The notes beneath the pieces are model-generated. The model was not told the origin of the DNA. It saw nothing but the letters and a program-made list of their open reading frames with translations, and did not search any database. This document shows, one piece after another, positions 1-61,545 of a stretch of 64,000 nt of DNA. Numbering within the stretch: the first letter of the stretch is position 1; each line of letters begins with the position of its first letter. The DNA is from Opitutales bacterium (GTDB lineage Bacteria; Verrucomicrobiota; Verrucomicrobiia; Opitutales; Opitutaceae), in contig JBBRBC010000012.1 of NCBI GenBank assembly GCA_038206205.1, positions 2,518 through 66,517 on the forward strand, written 5' to 3'. The position numbers and the translations under genes were made by a program.

Positions 1-165
1 GGGGCGCGGATTGAAACAAGGCAATTTGATTCTCGTAGGAAAGAGACGCCGCGCATCGCCCGAATCGTCCCCCCCCGTAGCGATTTCAAGAAACGTGAGG
101 CGGGAGGCGCGTTTTGTCTCTTGGTCTTTTAGTCTCTGAGCTCCCTTCAGGTCGCGTGGTGACAC

Positions 166-1985: not shown

Positions 1986-4900
1986 TCAGTTCGAGGAAGG
2001 TGGCGTGCGATAGCGGGTCACGTAAATGCGGATCGCTTTCATGCGAAAGTGCGTGGCTAGTTCGATAATGTGGTCGGCGAAGTCGGCGTGTTCGGGCAGA
2101 CGGTGGGCGAGGTCTTGCGCATAGGCGCGGACCCCCAGCACATCGCCTTTGGTGGCCAAGTCAAAGATGGCATTGGCTTCCTCCACGGCCGGCGCATTGC
2201 GGAGAATCGGAAACGGATCCCGGGATTCCCCCCCATTTGCGCGTGCACTTGTTCGCCAGGTAATGCCGAGGTGGCGTTCGAGCAGTGTGAAAAGATCTTC
2301 TTCGAAAAATGGCTTGGAGAGAAACGCGGCGCAGCCGGCGGCGAGGGCTGCTTGTTGCGGACCTTCGAGTGTGCTGGCGGAAACGGCGATGATGCAGGGC
2401 GGGCGCGTCTGATAATGGCGGAGGATCGCTTGCGCGGCAGCCATGCCATCGAGACGGGGCATGCGCAGATCCATCAACACGATATCCGGGCGCTGTTTTC
2501 GCGCCAGATCGACGGCTTCCTGTCCATCGTGTGCCGCGAGTATTTCAAAGCCGAGGGGTTGTAGCAGGTCGATTAACACGGTGCGGTTCGGCGCATGATC
2601 ATCGGCGACGAGCACGTGGAGTCTGGGGCCTTCATAACCGATGACGCGACGGGTGACGTTGGGGGTGCGGTTGGCCAGCACGTCGCCGAGTACTTCCGGC
2701 AGGGAGATTTCAAACCAGAACCGTGCGCCCCAACCCAAGCGACTTTCTACGCGTAAGGTGCCGCCCATTTGGTCGACGATATTGCGACTGACGTTTAACC
2801 CGAGACCGGTGCCACCGGCGTGCTGGCTTTGTGCACCGACTTGGGAAAAAGGCTCGAAGAGCCGGGCTTGGTCTTCCGCCGAAATGCCCGGCCCCGTGTC
2901 GCTGATGGAGAAAAGAAACAAGTCGCCGGAGCGTTCGACCGTGAAAATCACCGCTCCTTGCAGGGTAAATTTCATGGCATTGCCCAACAAATTGAAAAGC
3001 ACCTGACGGAGACGTTGGGAGTCGCCCCAAACGATGCGGGGGAGGTCGGGCGCGATTGAGCTTTCGAGGCGCAGGTTCTTTTCCCGGGCCCGGGGCGAGA
3101 AAAACTCCACGGCGGCGTGCGCAAACTCCGGGAGGTTGAATTCCACGGCATGGAGTTCGAGTTTGCCGGCCTCGATTTTAGCGAGATCGAGCACATCATT
3201 GATCAAGGCTAGCAGATGCTCGGCGGATTGATGAATGACCTCCACGCCATCGCGCTGTTTCGCGCTCAGCGTCTGGTCGCGATCCAGAATTTGGGTGTAG
3301 CCCAAGATGCCATTGAGCGGGGTCCGCAATTCATGGCTCATGCTCGCGAGGAATTGCGATTTGGCGCGGTTGGCGGCATCCGCCACCTCCTTGGCCTGAT
3401 GCAGCGCCTGCGCGACTTCGCGTTTACTGGTGATGTCGGCCATGACGCCTTCGAAGTGCTGCAGGCTGCCATTGGCGTTGCGGATTACGCGGATGGATTC
3501 GGTTATCCAGGCGCGGGTGCCATCAGGGCGGATGATTTCCGACTCAAAATCGGTAACCACGTCCGAATCGTGGATGAGTTGGAGAAATTGCGTTCGGCGA
3601 TTATGATCGGCGTACCTCTGGTGGCTCGTGTCATGGGCGGCGGTGAGGAGGGTGGCGGGTGAGGCATAACCTAAAATGCGGGCTAGAGCGGGATTCGCGT
3701 GGATGAGCCGACCTTCGAGAGTGGAAACGTACAGTCCTTCCAAAGCGTTTTCGAAAATGCCGCGATATTGTCTTTCGGCCCGTTGCAAGGCTTCATCTGT
3801 TTCACGTCGGTGCACGGCGCTGGCCGCTTGACCGGCCACGAAGGTCAACAGGCGTTTTTCCTCATCACCATAGGCCTTGGCGTCATGGTAATCCTGGATC
3901 GCGATTACTCCGATGGCGCGACCATCAATGAGGAGTGGTACGCCCAGCCACAGAGGGGCGGGTTGATCGGTGAGTGCCGGGACGTGTTCTTTCGGCAAAA
4001 TGGCGATCTCCCCAGCGGTAGTCAGGAGTGGTTGGCCGCTTTGCAGCACGTATTCAACCAGGCCGAAGCCCAGCTTTCGGTCTTCCGGGGCTGGCAGTTT
4101 TTCGTCGACGAAATACGGGAAATGCAGCGTCGTCCCATCGGCACTGAGCAGGGCGACCGAAAAATTCTTCGCCGACATCAATTCCCCGATTGTCCGGTGA
4201 AGTTCCGCAAAGAGCACGGGCAATTCGGCGTCGGTCAGCAGGACTTGGGAAATTTGGTAGGTGGCGTCTTGCACTTGTTCCCGCCGGCGCCGCTCAGTTA
4301 TATTCATCCCGATGGTTAGCATGCAGGGAATGCCATTCACCTCGATGACCTCGGCACTGAGGAGCAGATGCAGGAAGGCTTTCATCTTGGTATGAAACCG
4401 TCCTTCGAAGTCTCGTACCCGGCCATTACGATGCATCAGGCTGATAAACCGGTCCCGTTGGAAAGTATCGGCCCACAGGCCTATTTCCAAGGTGCTGCGA
4501 CCGATGACTTCGGCACGGCTATAACCCGAATTGCTGACAAAGGCGGCATTGACTTCGATGATTTTCCCGTTGTCGAGCCGAGCCACAATCGCGACTACCG
4601 GGATGGTTTGCAATGACTTGGCGAAATACTCCTGGGATTCACGCTGACGGATTTCACTTTGTAGCCGCCGTACAGCGGCTACGGCTTGATCGGCGACGAA
4701 CAGGAGCAGGCGTTTTTCATCCTCACCATAGGCCTGTGGATTCTGGTAATCCATGACGGCGATCACGCCGATAGCCCGACCATCAAGGAGTAAAGGCACC
4801 GCGAGACTGGCAGCGGCCGGTATGGTCGTGGGATTGAATGAACCGGTACGCCCAAGAATATTACTCATCTCCTCGCTCCGCGCCAGCAAGGGCTGCCCAG

Positions 4901-9099: not shown

Positions 9100-10494
9100 A
9101 TGAATCGTGTTTATATCAAAACCTACGGGTGCCAGATGAACGAGCGCGATAGCGAGGCCGTGGCGGCTTTGCTTCGCGCCCGGGGCTACCGCATGGTGGC
9201 GGATGAAAACGCGTGCGATGTCATGCTCTTGAACACCTGCTCGGTTCGCGATGCGGCCGAACAGAAGGCCATCGGCAAAGCGGCCAACGTTTCCCAGAAA
9301 CGGAAACGCAACCCGCGCTTCATCCTCGGCATCCTCGGCTGCATGGCACAAAACCGCGGGGCGGAACTCCTCGATGCGTTGCCGGATGTGGACTTGATCA
9401 TCGGCACCCAGAAATTCCACCAGGTGCCGGACTATCTCGACAATCTGCGCGCTGCGCAGGAAGCCGGTGCCCCGATCGGCAACACGATCATCGATATCGC
9501 GGAAGAAGCCGGTTCGCAAAACACCATCCGCGACCACGTGCTGGAAGAGCATCAAGTCACCGCTTTCGTTTCCATTCAACAGGGCTGCAACATGGATTGT
9601 GCGTTCTGCATCGTGCCGAAGACGCGCGGCGACGAACGTTCGCGGCCGATGGATGAAATCGTGCGCGAATGCGAGCAGCTCGCCGAACGCGGCGTACGCG
9701 AGATCACGCTCCTCGGCCAGATCGTCACCAGCTACGGCCGGCGTTCTGCTGGCCAGCAGAATGCACACCCCCATAAGTACTCTCCTTTCGTCCATTTACT
9801 GGAACGCGTGAACGCCCTTCCCGGAATCCGCCGCATCCGTTTCACTTCGCCGCATCCACGGGGTTTCAAGGACGACCTGATTCAGGCGTACGGTCGGCTC
9901 GAGAAACTCTGCGAATATGTCCACCTGCCCATGCAGTCGGGCAGCGACCGGATTCTCAAGGCGATGAACCGGCCTTACTCGCGTGATCGCTACAAACAGA
10001 TCGTCGACGACCTCCGCCGCGTGCGGCCCGACATGTATTTTTCCACCGATGTGATCGTCGGTTTTCCCGGTGAGACCGACGAAGATTTCTCGCAGACGCG
10101 CGAGCTGTTCGAAACCTGCAACTACGACATGGCGTACGTTTTCAAGTATTCCATCCGCACCGGCACGCCCGCGGCGACGCTGGAAGACCAGATCCCTGAT
10201 GACGTGAAGGAAGCACGCAACGAAACCCTCCTGAAAATTCTCGCCGCCAATTCCGACCGCCGGAACGCCACGCTACTCGGCACCACCCAGGAAGTGCTGG
10301 TGGAGGGGCCGGACAAGAAAGGCCGTGGTTTCATGGGCCGCACCCGGGGTAATCGCATCGTGCATTTCGAAGCGAACGAACGCCTCGTGGGCGAACTTGT
10401 CCCGGTCAAAATCGAACGCGCCTCGACCGCGGTGTTGTACGGCTCGCTGGTGTTGGCGGGAATCGCGGTAGAAAGTCCAGAGACCAGAGCTTAG
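9100..10494 (+). CDS. miaB: tRNA-i6A37 methylthiotransferase MiaB
   Basis: N-terminal YIKTYGCQMNERDSE, radical-SAM cluster motif CNMDCAFCIVP, C-terminal TRAM-like region, and typical length (464 aa). Confidence 0.93.
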   Translation: MNRVYIKTYGCQMNERDSEAVAALLRARGYRMVADENACDVMLLNTCSVRDAAEQKAIGKAANVSQKRKRNPRFILGILGCMAQNRGAELLDALPDVDLIIGTQKFHQVPDYLDNLRAAQEAGAPIGNTIIDIAEEAGSQNTIRDHVLEEHQVTAFVSIQQGCNMDCAFCIVPKTRGDERSRPMDEIVRECEQLAERGVREITLLGQIVTSYGRRSAGQQNAHPHKYSPFVHLLERVNALPGIRRIRFTSPHPRGFKDDLIQAYGRLEKLCEYVHLPMQSGSDRILKAMNRPYSRDRYKQIVDDLRRVRPDMYFSTDVIVGFPGETDEDFSQTRELFETCNYDMAYVFKYSIRTGTPAATLEDQIPDDVKEARNETLLKILAANSDRRNATLLGTTQEVLVEGPDKKGRGFMGRTRGNRIVHFEANERLVGELVPVKIERASTAVLYGSLVLAGIAVESPETRA

Positions 10495-10505
10495 AGTCCA
10501 GAGAC
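10471..10505 (+). repeat. Heptanucleotide-periodic array (CAGAGNC-type, about 5 units)
   Basis: GAAAGTC CAGAGAC CAGAGCT TAGAGTC CAGAGAC. It spans the miaB stop codon (10492-10494). Confidence 0.8.
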
Positions 10506-10542
10506 TAAACCGAACAATTCCGCTCCTGATCACTCCGCCTTT

Positions 10543-10577
10543 GACTCTCAGCTCTCAGCCCTAAACTCTCAATTTTT
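10543..10577 (+). repeat. Heptanucleotide-periodic array (NNCTCTC-type) abutting a start codon
   Basis: GACTCTC AGCTCTC AGCCCTA AACTCTC AATTTTT, then CCG-ATG (10581). Close relative of the array upstream of the SIS gene (37386-37427, minus strand). Confidence 0.8.
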
Positions 10578-10580
10578 CCG

Positions 10581-11126
10581 ATGCCACTCTTCCTCGCGGT
10601 TCTTCTTCCCGGACTTTTTCTCGCCCTGCTCGGCGGCGTGCTGTTGTGGAATGATCCACGGATCAGCTCCGCGGCGAAAGCCTTGCCGCGCTCGCAACGT
10701 TGCGCGTGGGTGTTTTTCGGCGCGAGCGCGGCGTGGTTCATCTGGCGGCTTTCACGGGTGGGAGAATCCGATCTGATTTTCTTCCAACAACCGCTGCCGC
10801 TGATGATTGGTTTTGGCGTGCTGGCGGTACTGGCGTTCATCTACACGCCGGACTTTCTCGCCGTGCGCGGGCTCAGCGTGCTGCTGCTACTGGTCGGCGA
10901 GCCGCTGCTTAAATCCGCGTACATGGAGTGGACGCATCCGTGGCGCTTGCTGATGGTCACGGCGGTTTATATCGGACTGGCACTGGCGCTTTATCTCGCC
11001 GCTGCCCCGTTCCGGCTCCGTGATTTTTTTGCGTGGCTGTACGGCTCAGCCAGCCGGCCCCGCGCGCTCGGTGCGGGGCTGCTGGTTTACGGCCTCGCCA
11101 CTTCGGCGGCGGCTTTCACCTGCTGA
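10581..11126 (+). CDS. Integral membrane protein, unknown function
   Basis: 181-aa ORF with about 5 hydrophobic helices, sitting tightly between miaB and gmk on the same strand. Confidence 0.6.
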   Translation: MPLFLAVLLPGLFLALLGGVLLWNDPRISSAAKALPRSQRCAWVFFGASAAWFIWRLSRVGESDLIFFQQPLPLMIGFGVLAVLAFIYTPDFLAVRGLSVLLLLVGEPLLKSAYMEWTHPWRLLMVTAVYIGLALALYLAAAPFRLRDFFAWLYGSASRPRALGAGLLVYGLATSAAAFTC

Positions 11127-21501: not shown

Positions 21502-21825
21502 TTAGTGATTAGGCTTCGGTTTAGGTTTAGGCTTAGGATTTTTTTTATCGTCCACCCTTAAAGTTTCACTGGAGAAAAAAGGCACGAGTTGATCGATCAG
21601 TGGCGTAAGAAATTTAGGTTCGTTTCTTTGGCTAACCCAGGAAAAGAAAATGATCGTGCTCGCGACAAATCCGATAATGCACAGGATTATCTTGTTCATT
21701 TTGAATACTTTGGGAACGATCACGAACACGACTACGACGACCAAAATACCCGCGCCTATCTTGAGCCAAGTATTTATTGGCATTTCTTTCATAGCTTCTA
21801 TCGCGGTGACGGCAAGTGGCAGCAT
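21502..21825 (-). CDS. Small two-TM membrane protein with (KP)n tail
   Basis: 107 aa, two hydrophobic helices, C-terminal KKNPKPKPKPKPKPNH encoded by a hexamer repeat. Lies in the low-GC block. Confidence 0.5.
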   Translation of the reverse strand: MLPLAVTAIEAMKEMPINTWLKIGAGILVVVVVFVIVPKVFKMNKIILCIIGFVASTIIFFSWVSQRNEPKFLTPLIDQLVPFFSSETLRVDDKKNPKPKPKPKPNH

Positions 21826-37376: not shown

Positions 37377-37385
37377 GGGTGCGGA

Positions 37386-37427
37386 AAAGTTGAGAGTCTA
37401 GAGCTGAGAGTGGAGAGCCAGAAAAGC
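37386..37427 (-). repeat. Heptanucleotide-periodic array (CTCT-NNN type) abutting the SIS gene start
   Basis: Sense strand reads GCTTTTC TGGCTCT CCACTCT CAGCTCT AGACTCT CAACTTT, then TCCGCACCC-ATG (37376). Confidence 0.8.
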
Positions 37428-38654: not shown

Positions 38655-39028
38655 GCTCGGTAAGCAATGACCTCGATCTCGACGCGGGCGTCGAGCGGAA
38701 GCTTGGCAACCTGCACGGTGGAGCGCGCGGGTTTGTGCGGCGCGAAAGCGGCTTCGTAGAGCGCGTTCATCTTGGGGAAATCCGCCATGTCTTTCAGGAA
38801 CACCGTGGATTTCACCACCTGCTGCAGCGTGACGCCACCGGCCGAGAGGACGGCTGCGATGTTGGCGAGCACTTGGCTGGTTTGGGTTTCGATGTCGTCA
38901 GCCACGAGTTTGCCGGTCTTGGGATCGAGGGGAATCTGGCCGGAAGTGTAGAGGAGATGGCCGGCGGTGACGGCGTGCGAGTAAGGGCCGATGGCGGCCG
39001 GAGCGTCGGGAGCGGTGATGATTTTCAT
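38651..39028 (-). CDS. ridA: RidA/YjgF-family reactive intermediate deaminase
   Basis: APAAIGPYSHAV ... SGQIPLDP ... ARSTVQVAKLP ... VEIEVIA, typical RidA, 125 aa. Confidence 0.92.
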   Translation of the reverse strand: MKIITAPDAPAAIGPYSHAVTAGHLLYTSGQIPLDPKTGKLVADDIETQTSQVLANIAAVLSAGGVTLQQVVKSTVFLKDMADFPKMNALYEAAFAPHKPARSTVQVAKLPLDARVEIEVIAYRA

Positions 39029-39029
39029 A

Positions 39030-39078
39030 TTGGAAATTGGGTCTGGGTGCTGGGATCTGGGATTTCAGAGCTGGATTA
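39030..39078 (-). repeat. Heptanucleotide-periodic array (CCCA-NNN on the sense strand) abutting the ridA start
   Basis: Plus strand reads TTGGAAA TTGGGTC TGGGTGC TGGGATC TGGGATT TCAGAGC TGGATTA. It begins 1 nt from the ridA ATG (39028). Confidence 0.8.
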
Positions 39079-39099: not shown

Positions 39100-39216
39100 G
39101 CGAGAGTTGAGAGACCAGAGCCAAACCATGCCGTGAATACGGCGTTCCGCGACAAAACCACGCGCACCAGTTTTGAAGATCGGGCTCTCAGCGCTCGACT
39201 CTGGACTCTCGACTTC
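39100..39216. repeat. Two opposed heptamer arrays (GCGAGAG TTGAGAG ACCAGAG; GGGCTCT CAGCGCT CGACTCT GGACTCT CGACTTC)
   Basis: Arrays at 39100-39120 and 39182-39216, of opposite polarity, in the ridA-methyltransferase intergenic region. Confidence 0.75.
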
Positions 39217-41247: not shown

Positions 41248-41357
41248 CGAAAAAGTGACCTATTGGGGTACTTGTGAATTGAGTCTTTTTTTTTTGGGGG
41301 GGGGGGGGGGGAGCAAAACTGAAGAAGCCACAAGTACCCTATTGGGGTACTTGTGGC
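41248..41357 (+). repeat. Composite double-palindrome element R1, copy B (spacer holds a T10 G16 tract)
   Basis: Same two modules as copy A. The spacer is GAGTC-T10-G16-AGCAAAACT (homopolymers at 41286-41311). Confidence 0.9.
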
Positions 41358-42232: not shown

Positions 42233-42850
42233 TCACGTCCCGTACAACCGGTCGCCGAAATCGCCGAGGCCGGGGAGAATGTATTTCTTGGCGTTGAGCG
42301 TGCGGTCTACGGCCGCAGTGAAGATGGGGACATTGGGGTGAGCTTTGTCCAGAGCCGCAACGCCCTCGGGTGAAGCGACGATACAGATGAAGCTGATATC
42401 TTTCGCGCCTGCCGCATTCACCACCTCGAGGGCTTGGATCGCGGAGCCACCCGTCGCGAGCATGGGATCGAGCACGAGTACGCGTTTGCCATCGAGCGGC
42501 GGCAGTTTGCAGTAATAGCTGCGGGCAATCGCGGTGGTGTGGTCGCGCTCGAGCCCGACATAGCCGACCGAGACATCAGGAAAAATATCCTGAAACGGCT
42601 GCACCATGCCGAGACCGGCGCGTAAGATCGGCACGATAGCGAGTGGCATCGCGAGCACGCGGCCGGTCATCGGTTCCATCGGGGTTTCGATTAATTTATC
42701 CTCGGTGGCGAGATCGCGGGTGGCTTCCAATGCGAGCAGCAGCGATATCTGGTAGCTGAGCGTGCGGAACAGCACGGGCTTGGTGGATTTATCGCGCAGG
42801 TGGGTGAGGACGTGAGTGCCGAGGGGATGATTCAGGAGGTGGAGTGGCAT
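42233..42850 (-). CDS. upp: Uracil phosphoribosyltransferase
   Basis: MPLHLLNHPL start at 42850. PRPP-binding VLVLDPMLATGGSA and C-terminal YILPGLGDFGDRLYGT. Confidence 0.92.
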   Translation of the reverse strand: MPLHLLNHPLGTHVLTHLRDKSTKPVLFRTLSYQISLLLALEATRDLATEDKLIETPMEPMTGRVLAMPLAIVPILRAGLGMVQPFQDIFPDVSVGYVGLERDHTTAIARSYYCKLPPLDGKRVLVLDPMLATGGSAIQALEVVNAAGAKDISFICIVASPEGVAALDKAHPNVPIFTAAVDRTLNAKKYILPGLGDFGDRLYGT

Positions 42851-42852
42851 GG

Positions 42853-42887
42853 GGGATTTTCGATTTTGGATTGGCGATTTTCGAATC
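42853..42887 (-). repeat. Heptanucleotide-periodic array abutting the upp start
   Basis: Plus strand reads GGGATTT TCGATTT TGGATTG GCGATTT TCGAATC, beginning 3 nt from the upp ATG. Confidence 0.8.
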
Positions 42888-43363
42888 CTGAAACCAGCGG
42901 ACACTCATACGGATAACGAGTATGAGAAGGAGAACGAGAAAGATAATTTCAGCCGCCACTCGTCACACGGTTCCGCCAGTCACGACTTTGAGCCCAGGGA
43001 AATCAGGGTATACCGTTTGGTGGCGCGGCAGAAAAATTATATCTCTTCTCTCTTTCGCGTTGGTGGTTGCGACCATCTCGCTTTGTTCAGTCGCGGAAAC
43101 AACATCGTTTCAGGTCAAGGTCACCGACACGGCGAACGGCCGCGTCGGGACAGCCGACGCTTATTCGCGTCTTCGTCCGCGATGGGAATCGTTGTGGGTT
43201 CGCGACGCTCAGCAACGGTCACAAAAAAGCAAGGTCCCGCCGCCAGTCTCTGCGGTTGCGGGAAATCATGGCGCGGTGAGGGTGGGGGGAGTCATGGAAC
43301 CCGGCCGCCGGACGGGTTGGGCTTGAAACGCAGATCTGAAAACGCGTCCGGGGGTGTTGTTCC

Positions 43364-46536: not shown

Positions 46537-46578
46537 GACAAGAATCAGTATTCAGAATCCAGAAGCCAGAAGGAAAAG
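46537..46578 (-). repeat. Heptanucleotide-periodic array (TTCTGNN on the sense strand) abutting the DUF5069 start
   Basis: Plus strand reads GACAAGA ATCAGTA TTCAGAA TCCAGAA GCCAGAA GGAAAAG. It fills most of the 61-nt intergenic gap. Confidence 0.8.
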
Positions 46579-59053: not shown

Positions 59054-59971
59054 ATGGAGTTAAGCAAATGGGGCCGACGCATGATGCTGATCGCTGTCCT
59101 CGTTGCCGGGTCGTCATCACCAGTTCATGCGATCATTTTTTATTCCACCGCTGATGCGAACTATAACACGACCGCACCCACCGGCCTGCTCGCTGATAGC
59201 GGTTGGCAATGGGTCGGACATTGGGGCGGTTTTCAAGGCGTGCCGATCGGTCCGCATCATTTCATCACGGCGCGCCATGTGGGTGGCGCGGTGGGCGAGG
59301 CGTTTGTGCTGAACGGCGTTTCCTGCACGACCACGGCATTTTTTGATGACACCGCGAGCGATCTGCGAATCTGGCAAGTGAGCGGCACTTTCCCCTCGTG
59401 GGCTCCGCTTTATCGGGCGAATAATGAAGTGGGTCGCAAACTCGTTGTTTTCGGTCGCGGTCTGACTCGGGGAGCGGAGGTTCGTGACGTCGCCACGCAC
59501 ACGCTGCGTGGCTGGCAATGGGGCGCGGGCGATGGTCGAATGCGCTGGGGGCAGAATGGCGTCGTCGCGGTGGTTGATCGCGGCGCTTATTGGGGCGCGT
59601 TGCTCTATGCGGTTTTTAATCCGACGGGCGGGAGCAATGTCGCCCATCTCGCTCAAGGGGATTCCAGTGGTCCGGTTTTCATGAACGATGGGTCCGGCTG
59701 GAAACTGGCCGGGGTGGCGGCAGTCGTGGACGCGGCGTTTAATACCACGGACAAAGGGGAAGGTTTCAACGCGGCCCTCTTCGAGCTGCGTGGTCTCTAT
59801 GTCGGCAACAGCAGCAAATGGACTCCGATCTCGGGTGCGAAGCCAGTGCTGAGTGGGTTTTACGCCTCACGGATTTCGGTGCACCTAGATTGGATCGAAA
59901 GCGTGTTGGCGCAGGAAAGTCCCGTCCTTGCCCGCCAAACCTTGCCTTCATCGGTTGCTCCTTTGCCGTGA
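59054..59971 (+). CDS. Secreted trypsin-like (S1/chymotrypsin-fold) serine protease, paralog 1
   Basis: Signal peptide MELSKWGRRMMLIAVLVAGSSSPVHA. Candidate triad H (ITARHVGG), D (ASDLRIW), S (GDSSGPVF). Alternative upstream starts at 58979 and 58964. Confidence 0.8.
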   Translation: MELSKWGRRMMLIAVLVAGSSSPVHAIIFYSTADANYNTTAPTGLLADSGWQWVGHWGGFQGVPIGPHHFITARHVGGAVGEAFVLNGVSCTTTAFFDDTASDLRIWQVSGTFPSWAPLYRANNEVGRKLVVFGRGLTRGAEVRDVATHTLRGWQWGAGDGRMRWGQNGVVAVVDRGAYWGALLYAVFNPTGGSNVAHLAQGDSSGPVFMNDGSGWKLAGVAAVVDAAFNTTDKGEGFNAALFELRGLYVGNSSKWTPISGAKPVLSGFYASRISVHLDWIESVLAQESPVLARQTLPSSVAPLP

Positions 59972-60417
59972 TAGTGTTGGTGACCGGCAAGGTTCTGCCA
60001 CCTACCTGATGCACGGCTGTCGGGCAATCGTTGCGTGATTGAAACGTGGATTTCACGCAGGCCCACTTGCCAGAATAGTTGGGGGCTTTTCTCTTCGGGC
60101 GTGCAAGCAACACCTCCTGCTCGTAACGCAGGCCGAGATTTCTTTTCTTCGGCAAAATTGACGGCCAAAATTGACCCCGTGCCTATTCTGGGTACGGGCC
60201 TGTTCCCGCGGCCACAGTGGCCCAAGCGCACCACTTGGGTGCGTAGCTTTGGCCCGACCCTCGCCCAGCCCTACACGCGTATTCAGCGCGTGGGCTGATG
60301 GGGCCAAACCCGTCTTGGCCGACACATGAGTGGCCTGACAATTCTGCCTTCAAAGTGCGTTTCCCAGGTCGAGTCCAATTTAGGAATGCCGGCATCAGGC
60401 GTAGCCGGAGTGACGTA

Positions 60418-60458
60418 GTCCAGAGTCGAGAGCTGAGAGCTCGATCCTCAGAGCTGGT
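60418..60458 (+). repeat. Heptanucleotide-periodic array abutting the protease-2 start
   Basis: GTCCAGA GTCGAGA GCTGAGA GCTCGAT CCTCAGA GCTGGT, then ATG (60459). An opposed partial array CAACTCT CAGCTCT GGACTGC lies at 60514-60534, inside the N-terminal coding region. Confidence 0.8.
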
Positions 60459-61545
60459 ATGCGTGATTTTGTGACGGGAAACTGTATTTACTGTATGGTC
60501 GGGCTCGAGACGCTCAACTCTCAGCTCTGGACTGCATCGTTCCGGCTGAAGCTACCTAGTCGTGCGCTCCTCGTGGTGTTATTTTTCGTCGGGTCATTCT
60601 CATCGCTGCAGGCGATGATTTTTTATTCCACGGCCGATCCGAATTACAACACCACGGCACCGACCGGAATGTTGGCTAACAGCGGCTGGCAATGGGTGGG
60701 CGTGTGGCGGGGGCTTTCAGGGCGTGCCGATCGGACCCAAACATTTTATCGCCGCCCGCCACATCGGCGGAACCGTGGGCGATCCATTCATTCTCAATGG
60801 CGTCACCTACACCACGGTCGCGGTGTTTGACAACACCCTGAGCGATCTGCGCATCTGGCAAATCAGCGGAACTTTTCCTTCGTGGGCACCGCTCTACCGG
60901 ACGGGTATTGAAGCGGGCAAGCCACTGATCGTCTTCGGCCGAGGGCTGACCCGGGGCACCGAGGTGCGCGATGCCGCCACCAACACGCTCCGCGGTTGGC
61001 AGTGGGGTGTGGGCGATGGCTTATTGCGGTGGGGCCAAAACACGGTCGCTGCGGTGGTGAACGGGGGTTCGTATTGGGGTGCCCTTTTGAATGCCACGTT
61101 GGATGCGTCGGGTGGAATCAACGAGGCGCACCTCGCGGTGGGCGACTCAAGCGGGCCGGTCTTCCTCGACGACGGTTCGGGCTGGAAGCTCGCCGGGGTC
61201 GCGGCGGCCGTTGATGCGTATTTTAATACCACAAACTTAGGCGCAGGTTTCAACGCGGCGATCTTTGACGCACGCGGACTCTATTCTGGCAGCAGTGGCA
61301 GTTGGAATTTGGTCGGCGGAACTTCTCCGGTGCCCAGTGGATTCTACGCGACCCGCATATCGGTTCGTGCCGCGTGGATCGATGGAGTGGTTCCTCCGGT
61401 CGTGGCCAGTCAGCCGACCAGCGTTCCGGTGATGTCTCCGGCCTGGTCTCTCCTGCTGGTGGCGCTGCTGTTCGGCAGCGGGGTTGTGTTTGCGCGTCCG
61501 TGCCGGTCGGACGATCAAGCCAAAGAGCTGGATACGCTATTGTAA
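60459..61545 (+). pseudogene. Trypsin-like serine protease, paralog 2, with C-terminal sorting-signal-like tail; interrupted by a +1 frameshift near 60708
   Basis: The N-terminal ORF (60459-60830) and the main ORF (60724-61545) each align with paralog 1 on either side of GWQWVGVW|GGFQGVPIG. Removing one base at about 60708 restores the frame. The tail is VPVMSPAWS + LLLVALLFGSGVVF + ARPCR. It could also be a sequencing error. Confidence 0.7.

Follow-up and report, generated by a model that had tools for sequence, protein, structure and literature searches.

Start-adjacent heptanucleotide arrays in the Opitutaceae: distribution, conservation and candidate roles

The stretch of DNA analyzed here, 64,000 nucleotides from an Opitutales bacterium (assembly GCA_038206205.1, contig JBBRBC010000012.1, positions 2,518 to 66,517 of the forward strand; hereafter the window), carries ten intergenic arrays of three to six imperfect heptanucleotides, or heptads, several of which lie directly against a start codon. 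Our results demonstrate that such arrays are a real, statistically strong and lineage-wide feature: they are specific to a period of seven, they concentrate immediately 5' of start codons with their G-poor strand in the sense orientation, and their architecture is maintained between species while the sequence family in use changes. We tentatively prefer to read them as transcribed, unstructured, G-poor leaders that would serve translation initiation independent of Shine-Dalgarno (SD) sequences, and we weigh this reading against roles as promoter modules, non-adaptive repeats, terminators and phase-variable loci.

Heptad arrays in the window and across the family

A preliminary description of the window, made from the sequence alone, had listed at least ten short arrays with 7-nt periodicity, and all were recovered where it had placed them. 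They span about 30-45 nt each, in DNA with a GC content of about 58%. Defining a period-7 tract by at least 18 matches at lag 7 over 28 positions (an earlier cut-off of at least 80% lag-7 identity was too strict, returned almost no tracts and was relaxed), we detected 12 tracts in the window against 0.4 in dinucleotide shuffles. The excess is specific to this period, with no enrichment in the window at periods 5, 8, 10 and 11, and with periods 6, 9 and 12 reflecting coding signal. A search for (AGAGNNN)3 with at most one mismatch likewise returned 13 matches in the window for 0.15 expected. Similarity between the units of an array is 57-80%, and Tandem Repeats Finder reports 68-85% matches, so that the units are not near-perfect copies. 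Mismatches between neighboring units cluster in a few of the seven phases (summed variance 4.82, versus 3.11 ± 0.19 in permutations), and the arrays are therefore composed of a conserved core of 4-5 nt and a variable spacer of 2-3 nt rather than of perfect repeats in decay. A scan of the whole window at Rfam gathering thresholds returned zero families, and the window contains no tRNA or tmRNA genes.

Six of the arrays had been described as placed against start codons, and five of these starts are well supported. The gene starting at 10581 has 861 homologs, with a length of 181 aa in all but three of the 120 listed; the N-terminus MPLH encoded from the upp start at 42850 is conserved in about 80 species; and Pfam matches extend from residues 7-8 onward in the products starting at 39028, 46530 and 37376. 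The sixth start, ATG 60459, is doubtful, as it sits, like ATG 60495, in the loop formed by an inverted pair of heptad arrays (60412-60449/60505-60530). The gene in question (60459-61545) and its neighbor at 59081-59971 are paralogs, both encoding a signal peptide followed by A(I/M)IFYSTAD..., and this second paralog seems to be split over two frames (60459-60830 and 60724-61545), by a frameshift or an assembly error. The arrays preceding ATG 10581 and ATG 37376 had been called near-identical over about 40 nt; counted on our alignment (A1), positions 10541-10580 and 37377-37427 share approximately 83% identity over 41 nt.

To place the window in its lineage, we note that its Upp protein is 86-87% identical to those of metagenome-assembled Opitutaceae, followed by Lacunisphaera and Oleiharenicola. 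The upp neighborhoods of 80 species, mostly Opitutaceae, were assembled into a sample of 1.31 Mb (1.38 Mb with the window). These 1.38 Mb contain 123 period-7 tracts, compared to 22-38 for periods 5, 8, 10 and 11, and 75 of the 123 fall in the 13.6% of the sequence that is noncoding, where the control periods contribute 4-11. The suggestion that the arrays represent a genome-wide style of signal is borne out to this extent: they recur across the lineage, and 38 of the 68 arrays located in gaps with a start codon at one end overlap that start or lie within 12 nt of it, while random placement in the same gaps puts 16.8 ± 3.3 there (maximum 28 in 2000 trials). The association does not depend on upp, since 21 of 41 arrays remain start-proximal (9.05 ± 2.5 expected) after leaving out those linked to this gene, and at least 12 gene families are represented. 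Orientation is constrained as well. The preliminary description had remarked on a biased sense strand, and this strand is indeed G-poor: C outnumbers G in all but two of the 38 arrays near starts (36 of 38; p = 5e-9), and the overall sense composition is A.21, C.35, G.16 and T.29. Tandem gaps as short as 51-75 nt are filled by arrays. Aggregate autocorrelation upstream of starts shows a small excess at lags 7 and 14 (0.292 versus approximately 0.275-0.28), which is real but weak.

The arrays fall into multiple unit families, including CTCTCAG, AAAATCS, CCCAGAN, TTCTGRN, CCTCTGT, TTTGGCG, CTTGCCA, GTTGAAN, TTTCGTG and GTCACTC, and they are also borne by the complete genome of a cultured organism, Oleiharenicola sp. 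Vm1 (loci L038 and L095). A metagenome scan for (CTCTNNN)4-ACT returned at least 120 stretches, diverse in both habitat and GC content, and the metagenome contigs inspected (L099-L178; GC 0.37 to 0.72) contain both perfect and imperfect (CTCTNNN)n arrays. Arrays of the CTCT type are thus not confined to the Opitutaceae. Among the matches listed, 14 of 73 read in the CTCT sense have an ATG with a long open reading frame (ORF) within 30 nt downstream, versus 4 of 71 read in the AGAG sense, and several contigs (L108, L136, L139, L157) present the order AGAG arm, loop, CTCT arm, ATG.

Table 1. Heptad arrays of the window and the gene at position 10581 (window coordinates)
Feature	Position	Strand	Context
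CTCT-module copy; + strand reads AGAGTCC AGAGACC AGAGCTT AGAGTCC AGAGACT	10472-10505	-	Distal arm of inverted pair; overlaps miaB stop TAG 10492-10494
CTCT-module copy, CTCTCAG CTCTCAG CCCTAAA CTCTCAA	10541-10577	+	Proximal arm; followed by TTTTTCCG and ATG 10581 (3 nt gap)
Conserved 181-aa membrane-protein gene	10581-11126	+	Start abuts array
CTCT-module copy, single	37386-37427	-	9 nt 5' of ATG 37376, SIS-domain gene
CCCAGAN heptad array	39030-39078	-	Abuts ridA ATG 39028
CTCT-module copy	39100-39125	-	ridA-proximal arm of inverted pair
CTCT-module copy, AGAG in local minus-strand sense	39182-39216	+	Distal arm; 10 nt past stop of upstream methyltransferase gene (39226)
AAAATCS (AATC-core) heptad array	42853-42887	-	2 nt 5' of upp ATG 42850
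TTCTGRN heptad array	46537-46578	-	Fills 61-nt gap from 91-aa ORF to DUF5069 gene; 6 nt 5' of ATG 46530
CTCT-module copy, AGAG on + strand	60412-60449	-	Distal arm of inverted pair
CTCT-module copy	60505-60530	+	Proximal arm; true start of downstream gene uncertain

Conserved architecture, family turnover and inverted pairs

The upp upstream region illustrates how the arrays evolve. Arrays with an AATC core precede upp in 19 species sharing 70-87% Upp identity, and the step between successive cores is exactly 7 nt in 41 of 51 instances and 14 or 21 nt in five more. The cores keep a fixed register with respect to the ATG, at -8/-15/-22/-29 (±1), while the 3-nt spacers and the DNA farther upstream are not conserved and the flanking intergenic DNA does not align. 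In other species the same place is occupied by CCTCTGT, TTTGGCG, GTTGAAN or TCCTGAA arrays, and the array is missing from species where another gene immediately precedes upp. Just upstream of the upp heptad array (42915-42940 in the window) are arrays with a hexamer period (AACGAG; CTCGTT when read with the gene). A further hexamer tandem repeat, TTAGGC in 4.8 copies, lies at 21509-21537, in a region of lower GC content (0.51 for 20-24 kb).

The same turnover is observed upstream of the gene for the 181-aa protein, where the window and loci L091 and L093 harbor CTCTCAG arrays, L092, L095 and L097 harbor TTTCGTG arrays, and L096 harbors a GTCACTC array, as well as at the DUF5069 gene and at a gene whose product starts with MWWT. 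In the window, the preceding miaB gene (9100-10494) terminates inside the distal of two arrays located about 35 nt apart, and the distal arm in L096 likewise extends over the miaB stop. In the window, the distal heptad arm supplies the stop and the final seven codons of miaB (VESPETRA; 10465-10494); the same C-terminal extension is found in the MiaB of L093, and in other species the protein ends differently. In L093, the gap between miaB and the 181-aa gene (2648-3000) has been expanded to 353 nt by an insertion that carries its own inverted heptad pair (CACAGAG/CTCTGTG). In related species (L094, 2978-3000; L098, 482-503), GAGAAC GAGAAC tracts that resemble the hexamer arrays near upp and follow genes of the 23S_rRNA_IVP family directly precede the 181-aa gene.

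At the strain level, the arrays are static. The population represented by the window is present in many public assemblies (e.g., JGI 3300007799, from Antarctic mats, 3300009084 and 3300015360, and the metagenome-assembled genome GCA_964549715.1), and the number of units is identical for four arrays in 10 assemblies and for the locus at 10541 in 10 assemblies. On the same contigs, the T10G16 tract at 41286-41311 varies by strain (C8-C16, A8-A10), providing a positive control that the data are able to reveal slippage where it is present. The idea that unit copy number might differ between strains through slippage, raised in the preliminary description, therefore finds no backing. The T10G16 tract itself lies between two copies of the palindrome CACAAGTACCCnnnnGGGTACTTGTG.

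All seven CTCT/AGAG arrays of the window align as copies of a single module of about 35 nt with defined ends and the consensus TTTGG CTCTCAG CTCTCAG CTCTnGA CTCTCnA CTT. Six of them form three inverted pairs (10472-10505/10541-10577, 39100-39125/39182-39216 and 60412-60449/60505-60530) that had gone unnoticed, and the copy at 37386-37427 is single. The pairs are arranged head to head, with their 5' ends toward the loop, and extend over 118-133 nt; in each, local transcription would run through the AGAG arm before reaching the CTCT arm, which neighbors the downstream gene. Predicted hairpins reach -44 to -55 kcal/mol (z -2.1 to -4.6) on at least one strand. The upstream gene's stop codon is touched or overlapped by the distal arm in several tandem gaps, and the arm often lies within 0-20 nt of it.

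Leader, promoter or repeat

The claim that array-bearing starts lack SD sequences was confirmed both in the window, where none is visible at the five supported starts, and lineage-wide, where SD-like 4-mers upstream of starts (9.6%) are less frequent than in a control window (12.5%). A C-rich stretch of six positions immediately precedes the start, C reaching 58% at position -1. In line with the SD depletion, two previous studies report Verrucomicrobiales as devoid of SD sequences (PMC10798248) and the Verrucomicrobia bacterium IMCC26134 as SD-scarce (PMC10783764). Predicted folding of the region from -45 to +15 is weaker with arrays than without (-7.7 versus -14.2 kcal/mol, p = 5e-11), and a difference of +4.1 kcal/mol persists after controlling for GC content. 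In addition, sense RNA folds more weakly than antisense RNA in 36 of 48 tandem gaps.

These features are consistent with arrays acting as cis-acting expression modules, each of 4-6 imperfect heptads, that operate in one orientation immediately 5' of start codons. We infer that the array may be transcribed as the last 40 nt or so of a leader or intercistronic spacer, the sense strand of which would be unable to fold on itself because it is G-poor and repetitive. Such an open leader might constitute an SD-independent landing site for the 30S subunit. The 7-nt spacing could stem from a bias toward heptanucleotide duplication or, alternatively, from the footprint of approximately 7 nt of single RNA binders with an oligonucleotide/oligosaccharide-binding (OB) fold, for instance cold-shock proteins or the domains of bS1. 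A complementary arm located upstream, in many cases over the preceding stop codon, would form a hairpin with the proximal arm, and a ribosome terminating on the upstream gene could open this hairpin and thereby couple the translation of the two genes. We prefer the leader model as it accounts for the position and orientation of the arrays, for the composition shared across families, for the short tandem gaps and for an architecture conserved over sequence.

The analysis of the upstream regions of predicted genes in 80 loci (L011-L090) and the window also revealed a distinct signature. TANNNT starts peak at -15..-12 (frequencies of 0.023-0.038 versus approximately 0.004, about eight-fold) and TTG peaks at -41..-34 (0.03-0.056 versus approximately 0.015, about three-fold), and many upstream regions read TTGNNN-17-TANNNT-6..9-ATG, as in TTGCCG-17-TATCCT-9-ATG. 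A promoter signature at such fixed distances implies leaderless or very short-leader transcripts. Searches of the literature on leaderless mRNAs in Verrucomicrobia returned nothing specific, and this signature was not found described there.

Several observations weigh against the leader model. The model assumes that the arrays are transcribed, and they span -45..-5, the very interval of the promoter signature; TTG at -43..-33 is present in 53% of array-bearing regions, compared to 34% of array-less regions and a background of 17%. Predicted folding has a z-score of about 0 against mononucleotide shuffles, and both weak folding and strand asymmetry follow from the G-poor composition, so that neither counts as a separate line of evidence. 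Not every proximal arm is G-poor, exceptions being TTTGGCG, GTTGAAN and TTTCGTG. A period of 7 is not in itself required for a leader to be unstructured, and the existence of at least 10 different cores would require either many binders or one that is not sequence-specific. The hairpin at 10472-10577 is strong only on the antisense strand; the sense strand, at -24 kcal/mol, is no more stable than shuffles (z = -0.66), which leaves coupling unsupported at this locus. Finally, gene starts outside the window derive from our own simple ORF caller based on codon usage, and the 80 loci are orthologous neighborhoods, so that not all arrays are independent events.

The strongest competing explanation, somewhat unlikely in our estimation, is that the arrays are DNA modules embedded in promoters. 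An array and its 5' flank would then make up a core promoter whose transcript is leaderless or has a very short leader, with the flank or first unit providing a TTG -35 element, a later TA-containing unit providing the -10 element and the heptads filling the spacer; as a variant, the heptads might serve as operator sites of a protein recognizing 7-bp repeats along the promoter. Leaderless architecture would explain the tight coupling to the ATG, and the arrays fit a core promoter in both length and position. Beyond the clear fixed-distance signature of the lineage and the TTG enrichment, the strict pattern TTGNNN-16..18-TANNNT, with a -10 ending 4-12 nt from the ATG, is found in 9.3% of regions with arrays, 4.2% of those without and at most 0.3% of controls, and a fixed-position promoter score is also higher with arrays (8.06) than without them (6.80) or in shuffles (6.1). 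The CTTGCCA family reads as a promoter (TTGCCA-16-TACCCT-7/8-ATG), and the two start-adjacent CTCT modules of the window carry TAAACT and TAGACT, while four of the five hairpin-arm copies have no TANNNT.

Even under a relaxed -10 (NANNNT), however, only 14% of array-bearing regions match, and about 86% have no TTG-16..18-NANNNT at the right place. The array at 10541-10577 reads TTGACT-15-TAAACT-13-ATG, with a spacer of just 15 nt, and the one at 37386-37427 reads TTCTGG-17-TAGACT-18-ATG. Only 4-7 nt separate the end of the -10-like GAAAAT of the AATC family from the A of the ATG, a shorter distance than in array-less promoters (6-9 nt). Consensus scans for sigma-70 promoters and terminators in the 36.5-47.2 kb region stayed at background level and were uninformative, the former finding nothing at the window arrays. 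Moreover, the promoter explanation leaves unexplained the G-poor sense strand common to unrelated families and the periodic cores.

It is less probable still that the arrays are mostly non-adaptive, generated by heptanucleotide duplication and slippage or by an element akin to repetitive extragenic palindromic (REP) sequences or miniature inverted-repeat transposable elements (MITEs), with selection only filtering out harmful insertions and leaving those that present their G-poor strand to the next gene. The CTCT module shares some traits with such elements, being dispersed in seven copies over 64 kb with defined ends and three sets of inverted arms, and in a single genome (L013, at 9957 and 14451) unrelated genes are preceded by 38-nt modules that are nearly identical. 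The occupation of the same orthologous gap by different families according to lineage and the wide distribution of (CTCTNNN)4 arrays in metagenomes point in the same direction, as does the attribution of a bacterial excess of heptanucleotides to polymerase slippage (Mrazek 2007, as relayed in PMC4679880 and PMC4692102). Against this stand the upp cores, kept in register in 19 species whose flanks cannot be aligned, a core-plus-spacer pattern unlike uniform decay, and the lack of length polymorphism among strains in which a homopolymer varies. Target-site duplications were not seen at the three pairs, as judged by inspection and not by systematic search, and no transposase or REP-associated tyrosine transposase was detected among the ten array-adjacent ORFs, the only ones scanned.

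An interpretation of the inverted pairs as intrinsic terminators or mRNA-stabilizing hairpins of the upstream gene, with single arrays as decayed halves, is improbable. The stability of the predicted hairpins, the closeness of many distal arms to the upstream stop codon, the occurrence of pairs in convergent gaps (L013, 10637/10697) and a T run after some proximal arms would fit this function. Sense folding is nevertheless the weaker in most tandem gaps and indistinguishable from shuffles at 10472-10577, the terminator scan of the window region did not rise above background, and most arrays are single and abut start codons, an arrangement that the terminator interpretation does not explain. 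Phase variation, by which a change in unit number would switch the downstream gene and which the adjacency of tandem repeats to start codons had suggested in the preliminary description, is very improbable and was rejected on the constant unit number observed next to the variable T10G16 tract, the units being moreover just 57-80% alike and the downstream genes, such as upp and ridA, housekeeping genes.

Other candidates were discarded on sequence grounds. G-poor arrays cannot pair with the C/U-rich 3' tail of 16S rRNA, the GGA and UAG cores of CsrA-, TRAP- and HutP-type sites are absent, and G-runs suited to quadruplexes occur only on the antisense strand of some families. Rho utilization (rut) sites in the C>G tracts are possible.

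The arrays bear on how ribosomes find start codons in bacteria devoid of SD sequences, such as Bacteroidia, Verrucomicrobiales and some cyanobacteria, as the Opitutaceae would offer a conspicuous, conserved and easily mutated feature at the very place of the absent signal. Hundreds of copies per genome would be expected if the window is typical. Either role, leader or promoter, would make the arrays a bacterial expression signal of a new type, composed of 7-nt repeats, and would assign a function to a repeat class (STRR, long heptanucleotide repeats, TAACTGA) left without one since 1990. On the practical side, start-codon calling in metagenome-assembled Verrucomicrobia genomes should benefit from the arrays and from the promoter signature. 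A broader and decidedly speculative extension, to which we assign a low likelihood, is that heptad arrays are a general substitute for the SD sequence. In this view, OB-fold units (cold-shock proteins or bS1 domains), each covering about 7 nt, would line up on the periodic RNA as on a platform and bring the 30S subunit to the adjacent start codon; the solution would have arisen repeatedly in SD-poor lineages, with inverted arms as coupling or regulatory switches. Candidate cases are the Opitutaceae arrays, those of the TAACTGA type in Beggiatoaceae, Bacteroidetes and Cyanobacteria, and the (CTCTNNN)n-ATG arrangements of unrelated metagenome contigs.

Comparison with known heptanucleotide systems

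The initiation signal of Bacteroidia is A-rich and Kozak-like, unlike the C-rich context at -1..-6 of Opitutaceae starts. SD-independent Bacteroidia and Verrucomicrobiales otherwise provide the same lineage context, with SD sequences depleted below chance, and no mention of periodic arrays was found in the available excerpts of the corresponding studies (PMC10798248; PMC10783764). The literature on Verrucomicrobia and Opitutaceae yielded no account of heptanucleotide, heptamer or tandem-repeat arrays of this type. The preliminary description, which knew of no report of such arrays, thus holds for Verrucomicrobia, but not beyond, as a close analog has been published: the TAACTGA heptamers located at starts without a ribosome-binding site (PMC4679880).

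These start-proximal heptamers of Beggiatoaceae are the closest precedent. One genome contains 169 sets of two to six TAACTGA units, mostly forward, the largest class of which ends 1 nt before the start (MacGregor 2015, PMC4679880), and the repeats are also present in some Cyanobacteria and Bacteroidetes. Binding by S1, cold-shock protein (Csp) or CsrA was proposed, with one OB-fold protein (Csp or S1 domain) suggested per heptamer (PMC4679880). The two systems are alike in having intergenic, direct 7-nt units (two to six, versus three to six here) in forward orientation, in ending near a start that usually has no canonical ribosome-binding site, and in showing no functional theme among downstream genes. 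The TAACTGA system, however, consists of one exact heptamer, related heptamers being rare as repeats, whereas the Opitutaceae arrays comprise at least 10 core-plus-spacer families, are replaced by one another at orthologous sites, frequently form inverted pairs (one is reported for TAACTGA) and occur in another phylum.

A second group of repeats, the GGGAATC/(GGGANTN)n of Xanthomonas and the GGGGA(T/C)T of Nostoc, has been studied as quadruplex-forming heptamers (Rehm et al. 2015, PMC4692102), in a work that also mentions three tandem heptanucleotides in Calothrix PCC 7601. These repeats are intergenic, combine conserved positions (1-4 and 6) with variable ones, typically count four units and include some inverted pairs capable of forming stem-loops, in which they resemble the Opitutaceae arrays. 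They are G-rich, however, in contrast to the G-poor sense strand described here, and vary extensively in length between close relatives, whereas the Opitutaceae arrays do not vary at the strain level; no statement on tight coupling to start codons was found in the available excerpts (PMC4692102). Heptanucleotide long simple sequence repeats are over-represented in the intergenic DNA of many bacteria, for which the footprint of the polymerase during slippage has been suggested as a cause (Mrazek 2007, via PMC4679880 and PMC4692102). As presented there, those repeats are near-perfect and slippage-prone, in contrast to the imperfect (57-80%), length-stable, core-plus-spacer arrays of the Opitutaceae.

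The preliminary description had likened the arrays to the short tandemly repeated repetitive (STRR) sequences of cyanobacteria, and the two do share short tandem heptanucleotide arrays, several families per genome, an intergenic location and the lack of an assigned function. The STRR heptanucleotides reportedly described by Mazel and colleagues in 1990 have the units CCCCAGT, TTGGTCA and CAACAGT, and we know of no documented adjacency of STRR arrays to start codons. As the unit sequences and the taxon differ, the latter being heterocystous cyanobacteria of another phylum, the Opitutaceae arrays are not members of the STRR family.

Two further systems bear on the alternatives weighed above. REP sequences, the bacterial interspersed mosaic elements (BIMEs) they form and MITEs are short dispersed intergenic modules present singly or as hairpin-forming inverted pairs; unlike them, the Opitutaceae arms have an internal period of 7 and an orientation fixed toward the downstream start. 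The omega repressor of pSM19035, a ribbon-helix-helix protein, binds cooperatively to arrays of direct or inverted 7-bp units over promoters and provides an example of such an array serving as a DNA operator. The omega system relies on a single unit, WATCACW, at a few plasmid promoters, whereas the Opitutaceae present many unit families, for which no candidate regulator was identified.

Together, these comparisons indicate that the Opitutaceae arrays share the architecture of the TAACTGA and (GGGANTN)n repeats, and that they differ in the multiplicity of core-spacer families, their turnover at orthologous sites, the G-poor sense strand, the stable length and the phylum in which they occur.

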